Below, in pieces: positions 1-25,715 of a stretch of DNA of 64,000 nt (positions are counted from its first letter, which is position 1; every line of letters begins with the position of its first letter). A program made the translations under genes and the position numbers. The notes under the pieces were generated by a model. The model ran no database searches and had not been told where the DNA came from. It saw only the letters and a list, made by a program, of their open reading frames with translations. Origin of the DNA: Clostridioides phage LIBA2945; the sequence record MF547663.1; one strand, 5' to 3'.

Positions 1-3000
1 AAAATCAGTGATAAGTTACCTGCATTGCCAGGAAATATGGTTCAAGCATTAAATGAGCAATTTGCAAATGCTTTTACAGGAGACAATGCTCCTGAAATCA
101 CACCTAGTGTAAATGGAGAAAAAGCTAAAAAGGAATTAAAAGAGTTAGAAAAATTCAAACAAGATACTTTTAAATCAGATAAAATTGTGACTGAAATTAA
201 TAATAAAGGACTAGATTTCGCAAAAAAAGACTTGAGTGTATTAAAAGAACAGTTGGATAGATTTAAAAATGAAGATACAAAGTTGTCTTTTACTACAGAT
301 TGTGCAGATGCTTTTAAAGATGTAAATTCTTTAGAGGAAGCTAGAAAAAAAATATCTGCTCCAATGAGTTTAAAATATGATATAGATGTAGATAAAAAAG
401 GATTGACTGAAGCAAAAAAAGTCTATGATATTTTACCTGATAATCTCAAAAAAAAGATAGAAACAGAAGTAATAGGTATAGATAAATTAGACACATTACA
501 AAACTTAATAGATAAAGCTCCAAATAAAAAAGAAACTATATTTGAAATAATTAATAAAAATCCAGATAAGCTAAATGAGATAGATGAAATTCTTAATAAC
601 GTTCCAAATGATAAAAAGGAAGCTGTTATTGATTTTATAGTAAATAATTTAGACCAACTTGAAAAAGCTAAAAATGTACAAGAATTTATAAACAATTTAC
701 CTCCAGAAATAAAAAAACAACTTGGAATAGAAGTTGAAGGAGGAGAAAATGCAGAGAAAACTGTTAATACAGTTCAAAATGCAGATGGAACTAAGGCTGA
801 CCTTTTAGTAAATGCAGAAGTAAATGGAGAATCACAAGTAGTTGAATGCATAGAAACATTGGATAAGAATGGTAATAAAACATACACTCCTAATTTAAAT
901 CCTCAAGTTAATAATAGTGAAAAAGTTGTTCAGTGCATGAGAATATTAGATGAATATGGAAATGAATCTTATATTCCAATTGTAAGTCCTCAAGTTACTA
1001 ATGAAGAAGGGCTTAACAGTACTAAACAAAAAATGGATGAGTTAGATAATAAAACAGTAACTTCAACTGTACAAATAAAGACAGAAGGAGAAACTGAAGT
1101 TGAACAAGCAACCAATTTTATAGAAAATACAAATCCAACTAAGGTTATTGAGTTATCCATAAACAACTCTGGTAAAGATGAAATTGACAATACAAAACAA
1201 AAGTTAGATGAACTTAATAATGAAAAAGCCACTCCTACTATTGAAGCTACAGGTGCAGAACAAGCATCCAAACAATTAAATCAATTATCACAAAAAGCAC
1301 AAGAAATTGGGCAAGGTAATTATCATATAAATGTTAGTACTTCAACTGAACAAGGGGCTAAGAATATTTCAGGACTTATAGCTAGAGTAAAACAATTCTT
1401 AGCTTTGAAAGTATCTACACTTGTATTTAGAACTGAAACTGCACAAGCAGCAAAAAATGTATCAGGTTTGTTAGCCAAAGTACAAAGTTATGTTAGCCGA
1501 TATGGTGGAAAAACTATAAAGACTACATTTAGTGCATTAACTGCAACTGCTGCAAAGAACATATCAGGGCTTATTAGGAAAATAGAGTCATTTAAATCAA
1601 ATTATGCAGGAAAAACATTCACTACTACATTTGTAACTAATAAAGTGACTAATAGTTCTGGTGGTGGAGGAGGAGGAAATAGTTCAGATAAGACCAATAA
1701 AACTGAACGTACCTCTGTTACTAATGTAACTCCAATTCCAGCTAATCTATTAGCTCAACCTAGAACATCAGAACCAGCACCAATAAGTGACGAAACTCCT
1801 GTAACACCAAAACCATCCTTATTCTCAAGAGCAGTATCAAGAGCCACATCCGCTTTCAAAGTAATCAAACCTAAAGTTACAATAAACAATGACACAATAG
1901 ACTCATCTGTAAAATATAGTATAGAATTATTTAAAGAGTTAGAAAATGCTATATCAGCAGTAACAAATGAAATAGCTCTATTAGACAAAAAAATGGAACA
2001 TGCTACAGGTGATGAGAAGATTAAATACTTACAGGAGCAAAATAAATTATTTGCTCAACAAAAAGATTTAATAAAACAACAACAAGATGGATATAAAGCT
2101 GAAAGTAACAGACTTAAAAATAGATTAAAAGAAAAGAAAATGGGCTTTAAGTTTGATGATACTGGAAATCTAACTAACTATGAAGAAAAGTTAATATCAA
2201 TAGAAAAAGAATTAGACAAATTAAATTCAAAGTCTGGTGACAAAGAAAATAAAAAAGATGAATCCAGAAAAAAAGAGTTGGAAGAAACTAAGAAAGTCCT
2301 TGAAGAATATATTAAAGTTACATTTACAGAACTGCCTAAATGTGAGCAAGAATGGGAAGAATACAATAATAAAATTAAAGAACACAATGAGGAGTTAAGG
2401 AAAGCACAAGAAGAAATGTGGAAACTTAATAAGAATTCCACATGGACTTCTATGTACAAAGATGTAGAGCAAGTAAATAATGAAATAGCAATGATAGATG
2501 TATTACTTAAAAATGCTACAGGTGATGAGCAGATAGAGTTGTTAGAAAAGAAAAAAGAGTTAATGGCCAAGAAGGCTAAAGAACTATCTGAAACAACAGC
2601 ATATCTTCAAGAAACACAAAAAGAGCTACAACAAAAGCTACAAGGCTATGGATTTACATTTAGAGATAATGGCGATATAACTAACTTCATTCAACATAAA
2701 AATCAACTTAAAAAGAACATGACTGATGAAGAATTTAAGAGAATGGAAGAGGCAGCAGAGGGATATTTGGATTTATTGATAAATAAAATACCTGATGCCA
2801 ATAAGGAAATTGCTGAATCTAAGGAAGAAATTGAAGCATTAAATAAAGAAATTCAAGATGCTTATAAAGACCAGCTTAAAGAAGCTCAAAGCCTACAAGA
2901 AAAAATTAGAGACATGTATAAAAAAGAGCTTGAAGAGAGACTTAAAGAAATAGATAAAGAAACTAAAGCTAAAATTGATTCTCTTAAAAAGCAACAAGAT

Positions 3001-3723
3001 GCTTACAATGATTCAAGAAAAGAAGCCAAATATAAAGATGATTATGAAGAACAACAAGATGTAATAAGTGATTTAGAAAAACAAATAGCAATAGCTGAAA
3101 GAGATAGTTCTTTAAGTGGTCAGAAGAAACTTAAAGATTTACAAAAACAATTAAAAGAAGAACAGAAGAAATTACAGGATTTAGTACAAGACCATGTAGA
3201 CGACCAAGTTAACGATATGTATGACAAGGAATCTGACAGACTACAAGAAGAAGCAGATAAGTTAAAAGAAGAGTTAGAGAAAAAATACTCAGATGAAAAT
3301 TTAGTTGATTTAATTAATGAAGCAATTTCAAGCGGTAAATTTGTAGGTCTTGATGGAGAGGTTAAGAAACTTCAAGATGCTATTATTGAATACATAAATA
3401 AATATGAAGATGGTATGTTGGCAATGGGTTCTGTCACTAAGCAGGAATGGCTCGATAGATTAAAAGAAGGTAAAGAGACATTAGAAGATATTAATGACAT
3501 ATTGGATGAATTAGATTTAAGTAAATTTGCTATGCCTAATTATAATCCTCCTTCAAATTCTCGTTCAAGAAGTACATCTCCAATATCAGCAGTTAATTAT
3601 AATTCACCATTTGTTGTTGTACAAGGGAATGTAACTAAAGATGTAATGCCTGAATTTGAAAAGAAGATGAGGAAAATGATTGAAGAAAATAACAAAAAAA
3701 TTATTTCTAATACTAGGTCTTAA
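1..3723 (+). CDS. Tail tape-measure-like protein, 5'-truncated at the window edge. It is a long coiled-coil protein with an internal 3x ~33-aa tandem repeat (AKNISGLI...) and a poly-Gly patch
   Basis: The ORF is open from nt 1. Composition is K/E-rich coiled coil. It sits immediately upstream of the Dit/Tal-like pair. The assignment is positional/architectural only. Confidence 0.5.
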   Translation, partial: KISDKLPALPGNMVQALNEQFANAFTGDNAPEITPSVNGEKAKKELKELEKFKQDTFKSDKIVTEINNKGLDFAKKDLSVLKEQLDRFKNEDTKLSFTTDCADAFKDVNSLEEARKKISAPMSLKYDIDVDKKGLTEAKKVYDILPDNLKKKIETEVIGIDKLDTLQNLIDKAPNKKETIFEIINKNPDKLNEIDEILNNVPNDKKEAVIDFIVNNLDQLEKAKNVQEFINNLPPEIKKQLGIEVEGGENAEKTVNTVQNADGTKADLLVNAEVNGESQVVECIETLDKNGNKTYTPNLNPQVNNSEKVVQCMRILDEYGNESYIPIVSPQVTNEEGLNSTKQKMDELDNKTVTSTVQIKTEGETEVEQATNFIENTNPTKVIELSINNSGKDEIDNTKQKLDELNNEKATPTIEATGAEQASKQLNQLSQKAQEIGQGNYHINVSTSTEQGAKNISGLIARVKQFLALKVSTLVFRTETAQAAKNVSGLLAKVQSYVSRYGGKTIKTTFSALTATAAKNISGLIRKIESFKSNYAGKTFTTTFVTNKVTNSSGGGGGGNSSDKTNKTERTSVTNVTPIPANLLAQPRTSEPAPISDETPVTPKPSLFSRAVSRATSAFKVIKPKVTINNDTIDSSVKYSIELFKELENAISAVTNEIALLDKKMEHATGDEKIKYLQEQNKLFAQQKDLIKQQQDGYKAESNRLKNRLKEKKMGFKFDDTGNLTNYEEKLISIEKELDKLNSKSGDKENKKDESRKKELEETKKVLEEYIKVTFTELPKCEQEWEEYNNKIKEHNEELRKAQEEMWKLNKNSTWTSMYKDVEQVNNEIAMIDVLLKNATGDEQIELLEKKKELMAKKAKELSETTAYLQETQKELQQKLQGYGFTFRDNGDITNFIQHKNQLKKNMTDEEFKRMEEAAEGYLDLLINKIPDANKEIAESKEEIEALNKEIQDAYKDQLKEAQSLQEKIRDMYKKELEERLKEIDKETKAKIDSLKKQQDAYNDSRKEAKYKDDYEEQQDVISDLEKQIAIAERDSSLSGQKKLKDLQKQLKEEQKKLQDLVQDHVDDQVNDMYDKESDRLQEEADKLKEELEKKYSDENLVDLINEAISSGKFVGLDGEVKKLQDAIIEYINKYEDGMLAMGSVTKQEWLDRLKEGKETLEDINDILDELDLSKFAMPNYNPPSNSRSRSTSPISAVNYNSPFVVVQGNVTKDVMPEFEKKMRKMIEENNKKIISNTRS

Positions 3724-3861
3724 TATATGTAATTGGTCTTTATTTATTATTCACTCATTTACTTACGTTTTATAATTTATAGTCAGATTTTTTTTGAAAA
3801 TATATATTTATCTAATAAAAAATATTGTTTATAAAAAACGTATTTATGATATAATAGTAAT

Positions 3862-4005
3862 ATAAATGATATAAATTTATATCATAAAGACATAAAAAAA
3901 GAGACTACAACTATTTGTGCTAGGGTGTCTCTTCATAAATAAGCGAAGTGTTAATTAGAGGAAGAATCACCTGAATTGCCGTTCGGGTGATTCTTAATTT
4001 TTTGC
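3862..4005 (+). ncRNA. Candidate cis-antisense antitoxin RNA, copy 1. A plus-strand extended -10 'tgatataat' lies at 3847-3855. The terminator hairpin 3965-3994 plus a T-run lies inside the toxin ORF 3' end
   Basis: Promoter and intrinsic terminator read directly. The RNA would overlap about 50 nt of the convergent toxin ORF. The region is conserved in copy 2. Confidence 0.45.
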
Positions 4006-4130
4006 AACGTTTTCTTAAACTCATCTATTTCTTTAAAGAGTCTATTTAAATTCTGAACCAACTTAATCAAACTAATAATTATAGTTGTAAGAAATGTTAT
4101 TATCGTTAACAAACAAATTAGATATTTCAT
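3951..4130 (-). CDS. Small membrane peptide (59 aa, MKYLICLLTIITFLTTIIISLIKLVQNLNRLFKEIDEFKKTLQKIKNHPNGNSGDSSSN). Candidate type I toxin, copy 1
   Basis: Translated by hand. A strong SD 'gaggggaggtg' lies 7 nt upstream of the ATG at 4130. It has an N-terminal TM helix and a charged tail. An upstream minus-strand promoter is TTAACA-16-TATAAT with an extended TG (4224-4251). Confidence 0.6.
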   Translation of the reverse strand: MKYLICLLTIITFLTTIIISLIKLVQNLNRLFKEIDEFKKTLQKIKNHPNGNSGDSSSN

Positions 4131-4391
4131 AATATCATATCACCTCCCCTCTTGATTTGACATGGGAAGGCTTATGTATATGAAGATTCACCCTAATAGT
4201 TTTTTTATGTAGTCTCTAAAAATATTATACCATAAATTACCAATATGTTAAATTTAATATTATATTGTCTACAATTGTAAAAGAATATTGTGTTCTAAGA
4301 AGTTATTCTATTAATAGTATAGCTTTTTTATTTTTCAATGAAGATAATGACAACATTGACTATTTTGATAATATTGGAGTATAATAGTAAT

Positions 4392-4548
4392 ATAAATGAT
4401 ATAAATTTATATCATAGGGACATAAAAAAGAGACTACAAACTATTTGCTGTAGGGTGTAGTTCTTAAAGTTAACAATAAAAAGAATAGATTTATGTATTA
4501 CTTTCAGAATCACTAGACCCGCCAGTCTGGTGATTCTTTAGTTTTCTA
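4392..4548 (+). ncRNA. Candidate antisense antitoxin RNA, copy 2. Promoter TTGACT(4356-4361)-18-TATAAT(4380-4385). Terminator hairpin 4507-4536 'gaatcactagacccgccagtctggtgattc' plus a T-run
   Basis: Canonical sigma-A promoter and hairpin read directly. Convergent overlap with the toxin ORF 3' end. Confidence 0.5.
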
Positions 4549-4652
4549 ATAGATGCTTTCAAGTTTAAGATTGCATCTATTAGCTTTGTCAAATGATTGA
4601 TTATTCTTGTAATCATAATTATCATTATTAAAAACAAAACTAAGTACTCCAT
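4491..4652 (-). CDS. Small membrane peptide (53 aa, MEYLVLFLIMIIMITRIINHLTKLIDAILNLKASIRKLKNHQTGGSSDSESNT). Candidate type I toxin, copy 2, paralog of 3951-4130
   Basis: SD 'aagggggtgagac' upstream of the ATG at 4652. It has the same K-L/I-KNH-x-G-x-S-x-DS tail and the same promoter block at 4726-4760. Confidence 0.6.
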   Translation of the reverse strand: MEYLVLFLIMIIMITRIINHLTKLIDAILNLKASIRKLKNHQTGGSSDSESNT

Positions 4653-4910
4653 AGTCTCACCCCCTTTCTTACTGGGGATTTTAACTAAAGAGCCATCACC
4701 CTAATAGTCTAAACTGTAGTCTCTAAAAATATTATACCATAATTTTCCAATATGTTAAATTTAATATTATATTGACGACAGGAGTAGAATAAAGATATAA
4801 TACAGATAACAGAAAATTTAAAAATTTTACATAAGAATTACTACTTATCTATGCCACCTTAAAAAGTGGCTATTTTTCTATTCTGGTATATATTTAAGGA
4901 GGTGTTACAA

Positions 4911-5066
4911 ATGATAAATAATATAGAAGATTGTAAGCTTCTTATTGAGGCAGAAATAAGAATGAAAGATATAGATGAAAAAGAACTAATATCTCAAAGG
5001 GAGATTCTGAAAGACCTAAATATTAATGAAAAAGACCTTGAAGATATTGAAGTGAATTTTGAATAA
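4911..5066 (+). CDS. Small acidic hypothetical protein (51 aa from the ATG at 4911)
   Basis: Perfect SD 'aaggaggtg' 7 nt upstream of ATG 4911. The track ORF starts earlier at 4866. Confidence 0.4.
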   Translation: MINNIEDCKLLIEAEIRMKDIDEKELISQREILKDLNINEKDLEDIEVNFE

Positions 5067-5201
5067 TGAAATGATTTATAATATACCTATTTTAAATATG
5101 TATTAGTTGATATCAGTAATCGTCTTTATCTAGTGATTTTTTATTTATTAACTGTAAACGAATCTGTTTTACAAAAAACGTATCTGTGGTATAATAAAAG
5201 T

Positions 5202-5306
5202 AAGGAATTTAATCTACTTAATACAAAGAGTGATTGTTTCCTTAAAGTTAATTAAAAATTAATTTATCTTTTGAAACCACTCTTATTGGCGTCTGAGTGG
5301 TTTTTT
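5202..5306 (+). ncRNA. Candidate antisense antitoxin RNA, copy 3. Promoter 'aaaaaacgtatctgtggtataat' (-10 at 5190-5195). Terminator hairpin 5273-5300 'aaaccactcttattggcgtctgagtggttt' plus T6
   Basis: The promoter motif 'aaaaaacgtat.t.tg.tataat' is shared with copy 1 (3836-3855). The hairpin lies inside the toxin ORF 3' end. Confidence 0.45.
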
Positions 5307-5380
5307 GCTTTATCATATATGTAACAAGCTATTAAACTTGTTGCAATATTTAGGCAAATATTAAACACTACTGTTTCCAT
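5264..5380 (-). CDS. Small membrane peptide (38 aa, METVVFNICLNIATSLIACYIYDKAKNHSDANKSGFKR). Candidate type I toxin, copy 3
   Basis: SD 'taaggaggtg' upstream of ATG 5380. The minus-strand promoter 'tatggtataat' at about 5495-5512 gives a ~120-nt 5'UTR with a second SD-like 'aaggaaggaggtg'. Confidence 0.6.
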   Translation of the reverse strand: METVVFNICLNIATSLIACYIYDKAKNHSDANKSGFKR

Positions 5381-5582
5381 AAATTCACCTCCTTATAAAA
5401 AAATAAAGCGAGGCTCACCTCCTTCCTTTGAAGAAGTAGGCTAAATACAGAAACAACCACTCTTAGCACTTTCGATTTAAAATTCCTTACTATACTAGAT
5501 TATACCATAATTTTACAATTAATAAAATATTTTAGCTCATCTTAATTGATGGGCTTTTCTAATACAAAGAAGGTGATAAAAT

Positions 5583-7298
5583 ATGCATTTTAATGTGAAT
5601 CTTAAACAGATAAAATCTGATTACACATTAACCATTCACAAGATGAACAAATCATTTTTAGGTCAAATTCCAATCAACTTTTTAAACTCGATAAAGCGGG
5701 AGCTTGGTGGAGTAGATGAAATACAACTGACCATTCCAAAATATATTACAGATAGATTTTTATTTAATAAAATAATAAATCCCATTTTTGAAGAAGTAAA
5801 AGAAGAACGTCTTATTTGTCTTAATAATAAAGAGTACTTTGTAATTAAGAATGTTGTAACAACAGATGATAAGTTAAAAGTAGTAACAGCTAAATCTAAA
5901 GAAGTTAAACTAGGAAAAATTGATGTGAATATTGAGGACTATGGATTACAGATGTTTACCAAAGATGAAGAAGCATCTATTATATCTCTTAATGATTATT
6001 TAAAACAAGAGACAGGCTGGAAACTTGGTTATGTGGATGATTCAATTGCTTATGAAACTGATAGTGAAGGTAATAAGAGAGAAAAGGTAAGATGGCAAGA
6101 AAGTATTAATTCTAACTGGTTAGACTATTTTAATAATGAACTAAAAGAACAATTTGAATGTATAGCTGATTTTGATACTTATAATAATTTAGTTAATTTG
6201 TATCATATAGATAGTTTTGGAGATAACATTCAGTTATATTTATCTCATGATAACTACATAAAATCACTTGAAAGAACTACAAATAGTGATGATATAGTAA
6301 CTAGACTGAAGCTTGAAGGTAGTGAAGATATGAATGTAATAGGAGCTACAGTTACAGGATATGATTACATTGAGAACTATTCTTATTTCTTAGACAATAA
6401 AGAAATGAGTGAAGAACTTAGTAGAGCTATAAAGAAATACCAAGAAATGAATGAAATAAGAGAGCCAATTTGGAGAGAACTAATAGATACAAAGCTTAAG
6501 AAGCAAAGAGAACGTGATAGTAAAAGCAACGAATGGCAAATGGTAATAGAGATGATAAGTAAGAAAAAAGATATAAAAAAGACATATGATAATCCACAGC
6601 ATAAAGATGAAATAAATTCAGCTAAAATAGCAGTAGAGATAAGTGAACTAGAAGATAAAAAAGTCATATTGGATGTTCAAATAAAACATTTAGAAGAAGA
6701 AATAGCTAAGTTAAATGAAAGTATAAAAGATATAAATATTCTTTGTAAGAGGGAGACTTCAACTGATGAGGATGGATATCTAATATTTAATGAGGTTCTA
6801 TTAGATGAATTAAATGAGTTCCTCTACTATGACACTTATACAAATGATGCTTTTTTAAAAGTTGAAGATTTAATAGCAGAAGGTAAAAGGCAATTAAGTT
6901 TGAAATGTATTCCAACACGAGAATGGACTCTGGATGTTATAAACTTCTTAGATAGAATTATAGATATTAATTTTAGACAGCATTGGAAGGGTGATTTGAG
7001 CTTAGGAGATATTATAGTGTTACATAGCAAAGAATCTAAAGAAGAAGAATTAGTATATTTTACATCTTTTACCCAGAATTTAAAAAACGGGAAGTTAGAT
7101 ACTTTAGAATTAACTTTAAGTAATAAAAAAATAAAAGAAGATGACAAAAGAACTATAGCTGATTATTTGACTAAAGCTGAACACGCAACAAGAACATTGA
7201 ACTCTAAAAGACATTTATTTATTCAGCAACAGAAGAAAAGAATTAACCTACCAGATGAATATATTCCTAAGAAAAATATACAAAAGGAGTTGATGTAG
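5583..7298 (+). CDS. Putative distal tail protein (Dit-like), 571 aa
   Basis: It follows the tape measure and its stop overlaps the start of the next gene. Positional inference only. Confidence 0.35.
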   Translation: MHFNVNLKQIKSDYTLTIHKMNKSFLGQIPINFLNSIKRELGGVDEIQLTIPKYITDRFLFNKIINPIFEEVKEERLICLNNKEYFVIKNVVTTDDKLKVVTAKSKEVKLGKIDVNIEDYGLQMFTKDEEASIISLNDYLKQETGWKLGYVDDSIAYETDSEGNKREKVRWQESINSNWLDYFNNELKEQFECIADFDTYNNLVNLYHIDSFGDNIQLYLSHDNYIKSLERTTNSDDIVTRLKLEGSEDMNVIGATVTGYDYIENYSYFLDNKEMSEELSRAIKKYQEMNEIREPIWRELIDTKLKKQRERDSKSNEWQMVIEMISKKKDIKKTYDNPQHKDEINSAKIAVEISELEDKKVILDVQIKHLEEEIAKLNESIKDINILCKRETSTDEDGYLIFNEVLLDELNEFLYYDTYTNDAFLKVEDLIAEGKRQLSLKCIPTREWTLDVINFLDRIIDINFRQHWKGDLSLGDIIVLHSKESKEEELVYFTSFTQNLKNGKLDTLELTLSNKKIKEDDKRTIADYLTKAEHATRTLNSKRHLFIQQQKKRINLPDEYIPKKNIQKELM

Positions 7299-25294: not shown

Positions 25295-25350
25295 ATGTTA
25301 TTTACATGAAATTTTGTTTTAATATTCTTAATTTGTGGTATAATAAAAGC

Positions 25351-25473
25351 AAGGAAACATATTTTACTTAACTTTGAGTGATGTTTCCAAACTAAATTAG
25401 TTTATTTGGATTTTCTTTGGAACTTAATATTAAGTTCCCAGCCACTCTTAGTCGCGTTTGAGTGGCTTTTTAA
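25351..25473 (+). ncRNA. Candidate antisense antitoxin RNA, copy 4. Promoter 'ttgtggtataat' (-10 at 25339-25344). Terminator hairpin 25441-25468 'agccactcttagtcgcgtttgagtggct' + T5
   Basis: Same architecture and near-identical promoter ('tgtggtataataaaag.aaggaa') as copy 3. Confidence 0.45.
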
Positions 25474-25533
25474 TTTATCGTAGATATAACTAGCTATAAC
25501 ACCAGCTATAATACTCATCATTAGATTTTCCAT
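25402..25533 (-). CDS. Small membrane peptide (43 aa, MENLMMSIIAGVIASYIYDKLKSHSNATKSGWELNIKFQRKSK). Candidate type I toxin, copy 4, and closest paralog of copy 3
   Basis: SD 'gaaaggaggtg' upstream of the ATG at 25533. The minus-strand extended -10 'tgatataat' lies at about 25624-25632. It shares 'IA.YIYDK.K.HS.A.KSG' with 5264-5380. Confidence 0.6.
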   Translation of the reverse strand: MENLMMSIIAGVIASYIYDKLKSHSNATKSGWELNIKFQRKSK

Positions 25534-25715
25534 AGTTTTTCACCTCCTTTCATAAGAAAGTGAGGAAATTTCTATGGAAACACCACTCACAGCTTTTTCA
25601 AATATTTATTCCTTGCTATGTTTATTATATCATAAATATTGGAAATATAAAATTTTAATATTTTCTAAAATCTGACGCTTTAAACGCCATTCTAAGGCTT
25701 TATAAAAATTTACCT

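Follow-up and report, generated by a model that had tools for sequence, protein, structure and literature searches.

Tandem cassettes between the tail genes of a Clostridioides difficile phage-plasmid resemble type I toxin-antitoxin modules and carry a separate peptide family

Clostridioides phage LIBA2945 (sequence record MF547663.1) was analysed over a stretch of 64,000 nucleotides (nt), here called the window, in which three small cassettes, A (3826-4290), B (4356-4800) and C (5130-5582), lie between the genes for the tape-measure and the distal tail proteins. By the annotation of phiCD211 and phiCDIF1296T, the long open reading frame (ORF) ending at 3723 encodes the tail tape-measure protein and the ORF from 5583 a tail endopeptidase/Prophage_tail protein, followed by a Peptidase_S74 tail fibre. 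The region 3700-5600 matches Clostridioides phage LIBA6276 (MF547662.1, 134 kb, circular) with 100% identity; phiCD211, phiCDIF1296T and AR1086-1 match 87% of the query with 97.5% identity. phiCD211-like phages are large plasmidial siphophages with addiction genes (PMC5786514), and the plasmid-like lifestyle of such a phage-plasmid would make addiction modules useful to it. Cassettes A and B, the main subject here, each contain a minus-strand ORF for a small peptide (pepA and pepB) and predicted convergent promoters that would produce a toxin mRNA and an antisense antitoxin RNA.

Cassettes A and B are related by direct repeats with a start-to-start spacing of 507-543 base pairs (bp) according to the repeat finder, and are 67% identical (BLAST). 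Their global alignment consists of two near-identical blocks flanking a diverged core: one block with the toxin promoter and leader (4208-4271 in A, 4715-4778 in B), another with the antisense -10 element and the 5′ part of the antisense RNA (3850-3933 in A, 4380-4460 in B), and between them the remaining 5′ untranslated region (5′UTR), the ORF and part of the 3′UTR. Four promoter-like sites were found by a promoter scan, three of them with an extended TG, and a terminator scan gave six terminator-like sites in the region against 0.2 expected. The motif AGAGACTACA..CTATT..AGGGTG occurs four times, as one inverted pair per cassette, with 0 expected from shuffles.

Much of a preliminary description of this DNA can be upheld. 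The tandem duplication it had proposed is evident from the direct repeats and the A/B alignment, the coding cores are indeed more diverged than the near-identical promoter/RNA blocks, and the scans recovered the promoters (3828-3855 and 4356-4385 on the plus strand, 4251-4224 and 4758-4731 on the minus strand) and the plus-strand terminator hairpins within the 3′ peptide codons (3962-3995 and 4506-4537) at the places it had named. The minus-strand ORFs of 59 and 53 amino acids (aa; 4130..3951 and 4652..4491) exist as well. Its unit length of ~430 bp needs correction, as the repeat period is about 510-540 bp and ~430 bp fits the promoter-to-promoter module only. The inverted leader motif was rightly seen in each cassette, but it does not begin both transcripts: it begins the toxin mRNA and sits 30-38 nt inside the antisense RNA. 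Likewise, the transcript overlap had been put at ~50 nt; the predicted 3′ overlaps are 112 nt in A and 125 nt in B, of which about 53 nt is coding sequence. They are longer because the most likely end of the toxin mRNA is the T-run that follows the AGAGAC..GTCTCT hairpin (3893-3933).

In cassette A, the candidate antitoxin promoter (3828..3855, plus strand; TTTATA, 16-nt spacer, TGaTATAAT) precedes a predicted antitoxin RNA of about 133-143 nt (3862..4004, plus strand; fold z -4.8), whose start would be 3862 if counted from the -10 element, or about 3871 if placed by homology to the C. difficile antitoxin RCd11. A perfect 20-bp palindrome, ATGATATAAATTTATATCAT (3866..3885), stands at the start of this RNA; it may be a 5′ stem-loop or an operator, and it is dispensable, since it is deleted downstream of the antitoxin -10 in the IMG/VR variants L018 and L019. 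The intrinsic terminator of antitoxin A (3962..4003, plus strand) is a 15-bp hairpin (3962-3995) with a T-run and lies inside toxin codons 46-56 (K-N-H...G-D-S). On the minus strand, the predicted toxin A promoter (4224..4251; TTAACA, 16-nt spacer, TGgTATAAT) is the same in cassette B and kept in orthologues. The mRNA would start at about 4217 with the 5′ leader AGAGACTACA..CTATTAGGGTG (4189..4217), complementary to its own 3′UTR, and would continue through the region 4141..4170, where the ribosome-binding site GGGGAGGTG (4141-4149) and an upstream anti-Shine-Dalgarno (anti-SD) sequence CCTTCCC (4164-4170) are paired in the predicted fold, into the 59-aa pepA ORF (MKYLICLLTIITFLTT..., 3951..4130). 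It would end in a predicted terminator and 3′ fold-back element (3893..3933, minus strand) made of the AGAGAC..GTCTCT hairpin and T7, which is positionally homologous to the 3′ end of CD0977.1 mRNA mapped by rapid amplification of cDNA ends (RACE) and whose plus-strand face is the shared leader motif (3900-3927) within antitoxin A. A SigB-type toxin promoter was also considered, as the -10 TGGTATA fits the consensus KGGTAWA, and was dropped for want of a convincing -35 WGWTT.

Cassette B has the same plan. Its predicted antitoxin promoter (4356..4385, plus strand; TTGACT, 18-nt spacer, TATAAT) would give an RNA of about 155 nt (4392..4546, plus strand; fold z -5.2) with the palindrome at 4396-4415, the leader motif at 4429-4457 and the terminator hairpin at 4506-4537. 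The toxin B promoter (4731..4758, minus strand; TTAACA, 16-nt spacer, TGgTATAAT) would drive an mRNA of 301 nt (4423..4724, minus strand) with a leader (4697-4724), anti-SD (4674-4678), ribosome-binding site (4658-4664), the 53-aa pepB ORF (MEYLVLFLIMIIMITR..., 4491..4652, minus strand) and a 3′ terminator/fold-back element (4423-4462); its fold contains a 5′-3′ closing helix and a sequestered ribosome-binding site. The corresponding toxin A mRNA is predicted at 324 nt, and the 5′UTRs at 87 nt (A) and 72 nt (B). A plus-strand ORF at 4338-4460, annotated in phiCD211, is regarded as spurious; it is without a ribosome-binding site and overlaps the antitoxin promoter.

Variation in the peptides was followed in cassettes (12 distinct A, 10 distinct B) gathered from phages, plasmids, IMG/VR contigs and genomes. 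Synonymous differences (pS 0.20-0.35) dominate over non-synonymous ones (pN 0.007-0.057) in the orthologue comparisons of both peptides. For pepA, pN/pS ranges from 0.07 to 0.16, e.g. with pS 0.30 and pN 0.021 against L005 and pS 0.31 and pN 0.028 against L006, while pepB and L022 differ by six synonymous changes and no non-synonymous one. This pattern of substitution indicates that the pepA and pepB ORFs are real genes under purifying selection. Both match PHROG 5620, a family with no function assigned (E 4e-29 for pepA and 6e-23 for pepB). The preliminary description had noted their absence from its ORF track; they are unannotated in the LIBA6276 record and listed as ‘hypothetical protein’ in phiCD211 and phiCDIF1296T. 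Their first 22 residues are hydrophobic and are followed by a juxtamembrane helix that holds the positive charges (net charge +4 in pepA, +2 in pepB); the extreme C-terminus is rich in Ser and Asp. AlphaFold2 predicts for pepA a single helix over residues 2-46 (mean predicted local distance difference test score 85, 91-97 over residues 1-40) and a non-helical tail of lower confidence. Both peptides show the generic features of type I toxins: fewer than 60 aa, one predicted membrane helix and charges towards the C-terminus.

Relatives of the peptides are few. Pfam, NCBIfam and PADLOC gave no match for pepA or pepB, and word-indexed protein searches returned phiCD211-type copies only, because small ORFs are rarely called; in tblastn, the low-complexity filter masks the membrane segment and coverage therefore appears partial. 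A profile search of 1.84 billion representative proteins found only six proteins. Four of these are more distantly related and have 54-84 residues, with one cut off by a contig edge. Two of the distant relatives lie in C. difficile-type chromosomal contexts, the others on metagenome contigs with unrelated neighbours, and all their loci keep the layout of promoter, mirrored leader, ribosome-binding site, embedded hairpin and convergent promoter. An assignment of pepA and pepB to the CD1980.2/CD1667.1 family of 58-aa sporulation proteins (antisense RNA SpoZ) was rejected, because the 58-aa protein taken to be of this type (MFKNKMDKCTH...) is unrelated in sequence and the profile search missed that abundant family. 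A possible homologue is CD1663.2 of strain 630, a ‘divergent’ small protein of 59 aa near CRISPR 9. Members of the CD1980.2 family have 58-60 aa, are 50-88% identical to CD1980.2 and usually lie downstream of a cyclic di-GMP (c-di-GMP)-I riboswitch (bioRxiv 10.64898/2026.06.10.731418).

The antitoxin terminator and the peptide tail share the same nucleotides. The toxin-sense codons AAG AAT CAC C.. and ..GGT GAT TCT, which encode K-N-H and G-D-S, are the two arms of the hairpin 3962-3995. Thus, the motif ‘KNH...GDS’ is the translation of hairpin arms placed in the last peptide codons. Across 18 distinct sequences, the 15-bp stem is paired in 91.5% of the cells, with two-sided changes in 9 of the 15 pairs; none of 500 shuffles attained the observed percentage paired or the observed covariation score, and slid controls were 31-49% paired. 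Several of the compensatory changes carry over into the protein: KNH becomes RNR where CAC/GTG is replaced by CGT/ACG, and D becomes G where AAT/GAT is replaced by AAC/GGT; GD also occurs as DD or DG. The antisense form of the hairpin is the more stable one in 19 of 20 cases, since its G-U pairs become C-A mismatches in the mRNA, which argues for selection of the structure on the antisense transcript. The exception is L018, where the central part of the hairpin appears inverted compared to the window, which changes PNGNSG to LNCHSG and affects three loop residues with no other damage.

Sequences of the C. difficile antitoxins RCd11, RCd12 and RCd10 were taken from Supplementary Fig. 9 of Peltier et al. 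2020 (PMC7699646). In local alignments, antisense RNA A scored 8.3 standard deviations above shuffles with RCd11 and 4.8 with RCd10, and antisense RNA B 8.6 and 9.3, respectively. The aligned parts are the 5′ halves of the antitoxins (TAAATT..TATCA..AAAAAAGA(G)ACTACAA(T)CTATT..CTAG(A/G)GTG). Judged by these alignments, the predicted antisense RNAs A and B are homologous to the validated RCd10 and RCd11. Moreover, the modules CD2517.1, CD0956.2 and CD0977.1 have been mapped by RACE and Northern blotting, with toxin mRNAs of 282-306 nt and 5′UTRs of 83-88 nt; their antitoxins measure 134-151 nt and their overlaps 131-134 nt, or about 130 nt. The predicted transcript geometry of A and B matches theirs in the convergent promoters, the 3′ overlap and the sequestered ribosome-binding site. 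In the phiCD27 copy of CD0977.1-RCd11, which is 95% identical to RCd11, the RACE-mapped 21 nt between toxin 3′ end and antitoxin start place the mRNA end in the T-run after TGTAGTTTC (calculated from printed coordinates); the homologous T-runs after TGTAGTCTC, at 3893-3899 and 4423-4428, are the predicted mRNA ends of A and B. The antisense -10 TATAAT is invariant in the 12 orthologous A variants, and the sequence upstream of it was replaced several times, with most replacements supplying a -35-like hexamer at about 17 nt (TTGACG, TTGACT, TTTATA).

The same RNA scaffold occurs on C. difficile chromosomal contigs. In L041 (1-600) and L043 (2400-3210), a pepA/B-type peptide is combined with a 3′UTR and an antitoxin that closely match RCd11, and a c-di-GMP-I riboswitch (Rfam, 73-75 bits) lies upstream of the antisense RNA, downstream of the peptide on the opposite strand. 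A 58-aa ORF (MFKNKMDKCTH...) downstream of the riboswitch in L043 reads towards the antisense RNA and, from its size and riboswitch context, seems to be of the CD1980.2 sporulation-protein type. This layout mirrors that of CD0977.1-RCd11-cdi1_5 with a different ORF, so that the RNA scaffold looks like a chassis with exchangeable toxin payloads.

A further conserved property concerns the two ends of the toxin mRNA. The first 39 transcribed nt are its most conserved segment, with 0-2 differences across the A variants, compared to 8-21 of 180 positions in the pepA ORF of the more distant ones. Minimum-energy folds of the full-length mRNAs A and B have z-scores of -7.2 and -7.0; in both, a helix joins the first 10 nt to the 10 nt directly ahead of the T-run, and leader positions of about 20-40 pair with the 3′UTR. 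This 5′-3′ fold-back is present in every orthologous variant folded, and the ribosome-binding site pairs with the anti-SD in every fold, with matched changes (CCTTCCC-GGGGAGG in the window, CCTCCC-GGGAGG in L005). The toxin leader repeats the antitoxin 5′ sequence in the validated family as well (phiCD27, phiCD24-1, phiSemix9P1, HGP05 and phiCDKH02). Cognate leader/3′UTR duplexes of 13 modules reach -33 to -47 kcal/mol (z -6 to -11) and cross-lineage pairs -7 to -28 kcal/mol; the cognate pair is still strong in the fully diverged lineages L036 (AAGGGTTACAACTG), L039 (AGGATTGTAACTAAT) and cassette C (AGTAAGGAATTT). In a matrix of 10 modules, the cognate partner was the strongest in all rows but one (9 of 10), and the cognate mean was not attained in any of 200,000 permutations. 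As far as folds and duplex energies tell, the flanking inverted repeat makes the 5′ end of the predicted toxin mRNA complementary to its own 3′ end, and this complementarity is conserved and co-evolves across lineages. We found no description of the fold-back in the C. difficile toxin-antitoxin (TA) literature searched, and it could stand in other papers. It may protect the mRNA from 5′ and 3′ exonucleases, keep it translationally silent and compete with the antitoxin: the 3′ partner of the fold-back is the very sequence that the antitoxin covers, so antitoxin binding and self-closure of the mRNA would be in competition.

We consider it likely that each of the two cassettes is a type I TA (addiction) module on the CD0977.1-RCd11/CD0956.2-RCd10 RNA scaffold with a different toxin peptide. 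The preliminary description had already compared the arrangement to the 3′-overlapping type I pairs of C. difficile prophages, and the RCd homology, the predicted geometry, purifying selection on the ORFs and hairpin covariation speak in favour of it. It had also suggested comparisons with the RCd antitoxin RNAs, Rfam and the CD0956.2/CD2517.1-family toxins; of these, only the RCd antitoxins proved to be relatives (alignments 4.8-9.3 standard deviations above shuffles).

Several observations weigh against the type I TA reading. An Rfam scan of 3000-6500 at E<=10 gave chance matches to eukaryotic or unrelated families only and no model that detects the A/B RNAs. In known C. difficile toxins, a hydrophobic membrane segment at the N-terminus leads into a C-terminal tail that is positively charged and rich in lysine (PMC7699646), and pepA and pepB are without this tail, which has been called characteristic of the family. 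The NCBIfam model NF047374 (CD_typeI_toxin, curated cut-off 60 bits) had no match at E<=10 in pepA, pepB and four relatives, compared to 82-92 bits for the phiCD27- and phiCD24-1-type toxins, and a profile-profile comparison (hhalign) aligned 14 hairpin-encoded columns only, KIKNHPNGNSGDS versus KVKSHS..KSG, at a probability of 5%. By these comparisons, pepA and pepB form a small peptide family separate from the CD0956.2/CD2517.1 toxins. Further, changes in the 5′-3′ helix within lineages are mostly one-sided and wobble-compatible, so the covariation comes mainly from comparisons between lineages, and the minus-strand terminator predicted for cassette A, which has a weak stem of 6 bp and a large loop, was not called by the terminator scan. 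Finally, the ribosome-binding site of toxin A lies 12 nt from the start codon in the window and 7 nt in L004, L005 and L027, owing to a tandem duplication of TGATA (window 4131-4142) that also creates a tiny out-of-frame upstream ATG and may weaken translation of toxin A in this phage.

If the cassettes are type I TA modules, they might work as follows. A constitutive-looking minus-strand promoter would produce the mRNA (about 300-325 nt) of a small peptide that begins with a membrane helix, continues as a positively charged amphipathic stretch and ends in a short acidic tail, and the convergent plus-strand promoter an RNA of about 145 nt that is fully complementary to the last 110-125 nt of this mRNA. 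The first 30-40 nt of the mRNA would pair with its own 3′UTR and the ribosome-binding site with the upstream anti-SD, leaving the full-length mRNA closed, stable and poorly translated, with a 5′-3′ fold-back comparable to that of hok/aapA1. The antisense RNA, presumably abundant and labile, would pair with the 3′ region of the mRNA, probably beginning at the hairpin loops or at an 18-nt single-stranded stretch around the stop codon. Once the phage-plasmid is lost, the antisense RNA would decay first, the stable mRNA would be translated and the peptide would damage the membrane, so that cured cells are killed or arrested. The diverged cores of A and B (ORF, hairpin loop and spacer) would prevent cross-neutralisation of the two pairs.

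A non-lethal function is an unlikely alternative to addiction, with the peptides acting as antisense-regulated small membrane proteins in the manner of a SpoZ/CD1667.1-like regulator, in superinfection exclusion or in lysis timing. The homology of the RNA scaffold (antisense 5′ domain, leader and terminator position) to RCd10/RCd11, the partners of proven toxins, speaks for a toxin, even though pepA and pepB themselves stand outside the validated toxin family and have an acidic, not lysine-rich, tail. C. difficile does possess at least one small protein that is silenced by a cis-antisense RNA and has a sporulation phenotype instead of killing (PMC10602386; bioRxiv 10.64898/2026.06.10.731418), but the CD1980.2/CD1667.1-type 58-aa protein beside a pepA/B relative is of unrelated sequence (MFKNKMDKCTH...). 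The cassettes do sit among tail genes; however, the same slot carries bona fide TA modules in relatives, and a double translational lock of anti-SD and fold-back is typical of mRNAs with a dangerous product.

It is very improbable, in our view, that the inverted repeats and conserved blocks act at the DNA level, as termini of mobile cassettes resembling miniature inverted-repeat transposable elements or as recombination sites, with no function in RNA. Inverted copies of the 28-nt motif do bracket each cassette, but the motif lies inside both promoters and not at the cassette edges, and the conserved blocks reach beyond it. The near-identity of the A and B flanks could reflect gene conversion, and cassette content and order vary among relatives (A only, A-B, B-A), as would suit a mobile unit; yet the 5′/3′ complementarity is kept where the sequence is wholly different (L036, L039 and cassette C), which is a prediction of pairing and not of a recombinase site, and the few within-lineage differences inspected by eye are G-U compatible. 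Moreover, a scan for the leader motif in 185,579 species-representative genomes gave real matches only in C. difficile, with single, chance-like hits at five other loci and no extra dispersed copies seen. That the small ORFs are spurious and the hairpins mere terminators or attenuators of the tail operon, as the tail-gene orientation of the plus-strand hairpins and the missing annotation in the LIBA6276 record would allow, can practically be dismissed given the large excess of synonymous over non-synonymous changes in both ORFs, the conserved strong ribosome-binding site with its matched anti-SD, and the membership of the ORFs in a PHROG and in a peptide family kept in unrelated genomic contexts.

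Taken as type I TA modules, cassettes A and B are not categorically new, because such modules are established in C. difficile phages (PMC5961336, PMC7699646, PMC6563280). Useful additions to what is known are an undescribed toxin peptide family, the constraint imposed by an embedded terminator and the co-evolving fold-back. These might be joined in a generalisation to all C. difficile type I TAs, including the validated ones, for which we see about even chances and whose three elements were not described in the C. difficile TA papers searched: an mRNA-locking fold-back that co-evolves, a tail motif that is mainly a by-product of the terminator and not a protein requirement, and a portable chassis in which unrelated toxin ORFs are swapped. 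Under this joint proposal, pepA and pepB would be an alternative payload, with CD0977.1 and a pepA/B-type peptide as the two options on the RCd11-type riboswitch-linked scaffold.

Relatives differ in what they hold between the tape-measure and distal-tail genes: A alone (pCD1602_4), A-B (most) or B-A (L017). In pCd18_2 (L006, NZ_CP037807.1), a RelE/ParE-Phd/YefM type II TA pair (1405-2075) adjoins a single A-type cassette in the same slot. In phiCD24-1 (L031/L035, LN681534.1 17573-17722), a 44-kb siphophage unrelated to the window, the equivalent slot, between a 5.5-kb gene (tape-measure by position) and a tail component gene, holds a type I module of known type with a 49-aa toxin, co-oriented with the tail genes, and an RCd11-like antisense RNA. 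The view of the preliminary description that such a moron between tail genes is unusual is therefore not borne out: the slot is a recurrent cargo site, and TA insertion there is not exceptional for C. difficile siphophages. The toxins of the window face opposite to the tail genes, so that their antitoxin RNAs run in the direction of late transcription. The tape-measure stop and the distal-tail start are separated by four plus-strand terminator-like hairpins (3962-3995, 4506-4537, 4853-4870 and 5534-5555); late tail transcription must read through these or restart.

The third cassette of this slot, C, which the preliminary description had missed in reporting A and B only, belongs to the described short-toxin family. 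Its 38-aa toxin ORF (5380..5264, minus strand) matches NF047374 (E 5e-7, 30 bits, below the cut-off) and contains the antitoxin terminator hairpin (5274-5303); the predicted antitoxin promoter lies at 5168-5195 (plus strand) and the toxin promoter at about 5489-5518 (minus strand). Both predicted transcripts start with AGTAAGGAATTT, and the 5′-3′ duplex amounts to -41.5 kcal/mol. The antisense region of C is homologous to many C. difficile phages including phiCD38-2, the antitoxin promoters of A and C are about 73% identical, and a 29-nt stretch of the cassette A antitoxin promoter is 96.6% identical to part of the phiCD211 cassette C region. phiCD211 and phiCDIF1296T (L002/L003) are without 164 bp at about 4647-4648 that are present in LIBA6276 (window 5354-5517); as these hold the start codon, 5′UTR and promoter of the cassette C toxin, both phages keep an orphan antitoxin C only. 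Between cassettes B and C, we observed a very acidic 51-aa ORF (4911..5066, plus strand; MINNIEDCKLL...) that matches PHROG 13860 (no function assigned), with a promoter-like site of its own (4772-4801), a hairpin (4853-4870) and a strong ribosome-binding site. A fourth candidate type I module lies elsewhere in the window (25330-25635). Its 43-aa ORF (25533..25402, minus strand) scores 55 bits with NF047374, a promoter, TGGTATAAT, stands at 25336-25344 on the plus strand, and a terminator hairpin occupies 25440-25467; the two predicted transcripts share the start AGCAAGGAA (5′-3′ duplex -43.8 kcal/mol).

Incomplete cassettes were also observed. Orphan A-type antitoxin genes are present in L007 (NC_017177.1, the 301-kb plasmid of C. 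difficile BI1; 2480-2700) and L008 (CP061362.1; 2440-2660), which share a breakpoint and retain the antitoxin promoter, the leader motif, an intact terminator hairpin and only the 3′ third of the toxin ORF; one may speculate that they neutralise the phage-plasmid toxin as anti-addiction genes. In the B cassette of the IMG/VR contig L009, the toxin start codon is lost and the ORF begins MIIMITR, possibly an inactivated toxin copy that retains its antitoxin.

phiCD211-like elements replicate as plasmids, and a noticeable share of C. difficile strains carries them. Their stable inheritance would be easier to explain with three adjacent type I modules, a fourth elsewhere in the window and type II modules in relatives, all of which would also make them hard to cure. 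Both toxin and antitoxin are missed by NCBIfam and Rfam models, and the peptide family and RNA signature described here can be used to find more of them. The embedded terminator and the fold-back allow concrete mutational tests of silencing across the C. difficile TA family, and a toxin/antitoxin pair that does not cross-react would provide a second, orthogonal marker.

Locking of a toxin mRNA by 5′-3′ pairing, with a sequestered ribosome-binding site, is known from hok/sok of plasmid R1, in a context of plasmid addiction, and from aapA1/IsoA1 of Helicobacter pylori, in which Sok and IsoA1 pair with the 5′ region and activation of the mRNA needs 3′ trimming. The same kind of lock and sequestration is predicted for A and B, whereas their antisense RNAs cover the 3′ end including the fold-back partner, and there is no sequence relationship to either system. 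In the prophage modules txpA/RatA, bsrG/SR4 and yonT/SR6 of Bacillus subtilis, a convergent, 3′-overlapping antisense RNA exerts degradation-based control and the ribosome-binding site is partly sequestered. A and B share the convergent 3′ overlap and the prophage location with them, but no sequence similarity, and we know of no case among these modules in which the antitoxin terminator is embedded as a conserved peptide motif. The 3′-overlapping modules of B. subtilis are discussed in PMC6563280.

Closer to A and B are the short-variant modules of C. difficile, CD0904.1-RCd13/CD0956.3-RCd14 and cassette C, which have the same convergent layout. Their hairpin-encoded C-terminal motif ‘KNHP(D/N)(A/G)N(K/S)G(D)’ resembles the tail of pepA (cf. 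KIKNHPDANKGDLKK in phiCDKH02), whereas the toxins have only 34-38 aa without an amphipathic linker and the leader and fold-back sequence (AGTAAGGAATTT...) differs from that of A and B. The closest relatives are the reference modules CD0977.1-RCd11/CD2889-RCd12 and CD0956.2-RCd10/CD2907.1-RCd9 (Maikova 2018, PMC5961336; Peltier 2020, PMC7699646). Unlike these, A and B form a tandem pair in a 134-kb phage-plasmid, without an adjacent CRISPR array and, in this phage, without a c-di-GMP riboswitch, and encode peptides that are not recognisably related outside the hairpin-encoded motif, with an amphipathic extension of 20-25 residues after the membrane segment and a short Ser/Asp-rich instead of a lysine-rich end. 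Like these, they have convergent 3′-overlapping transcripts of similar sizes and 5′UTR with a ribosome-binding site predicted to be sequestered, a homologous antisense 5′ domain AGA(G)ACTACA-CTATT-TAG(A/G)GTG, an antisense terminator hairpin in the C-terminal toxin codons that encode K-(S/N)-H, a toxin leader that mirrors the antitoxin 5′ region, and a phage or mobile element as carrier.

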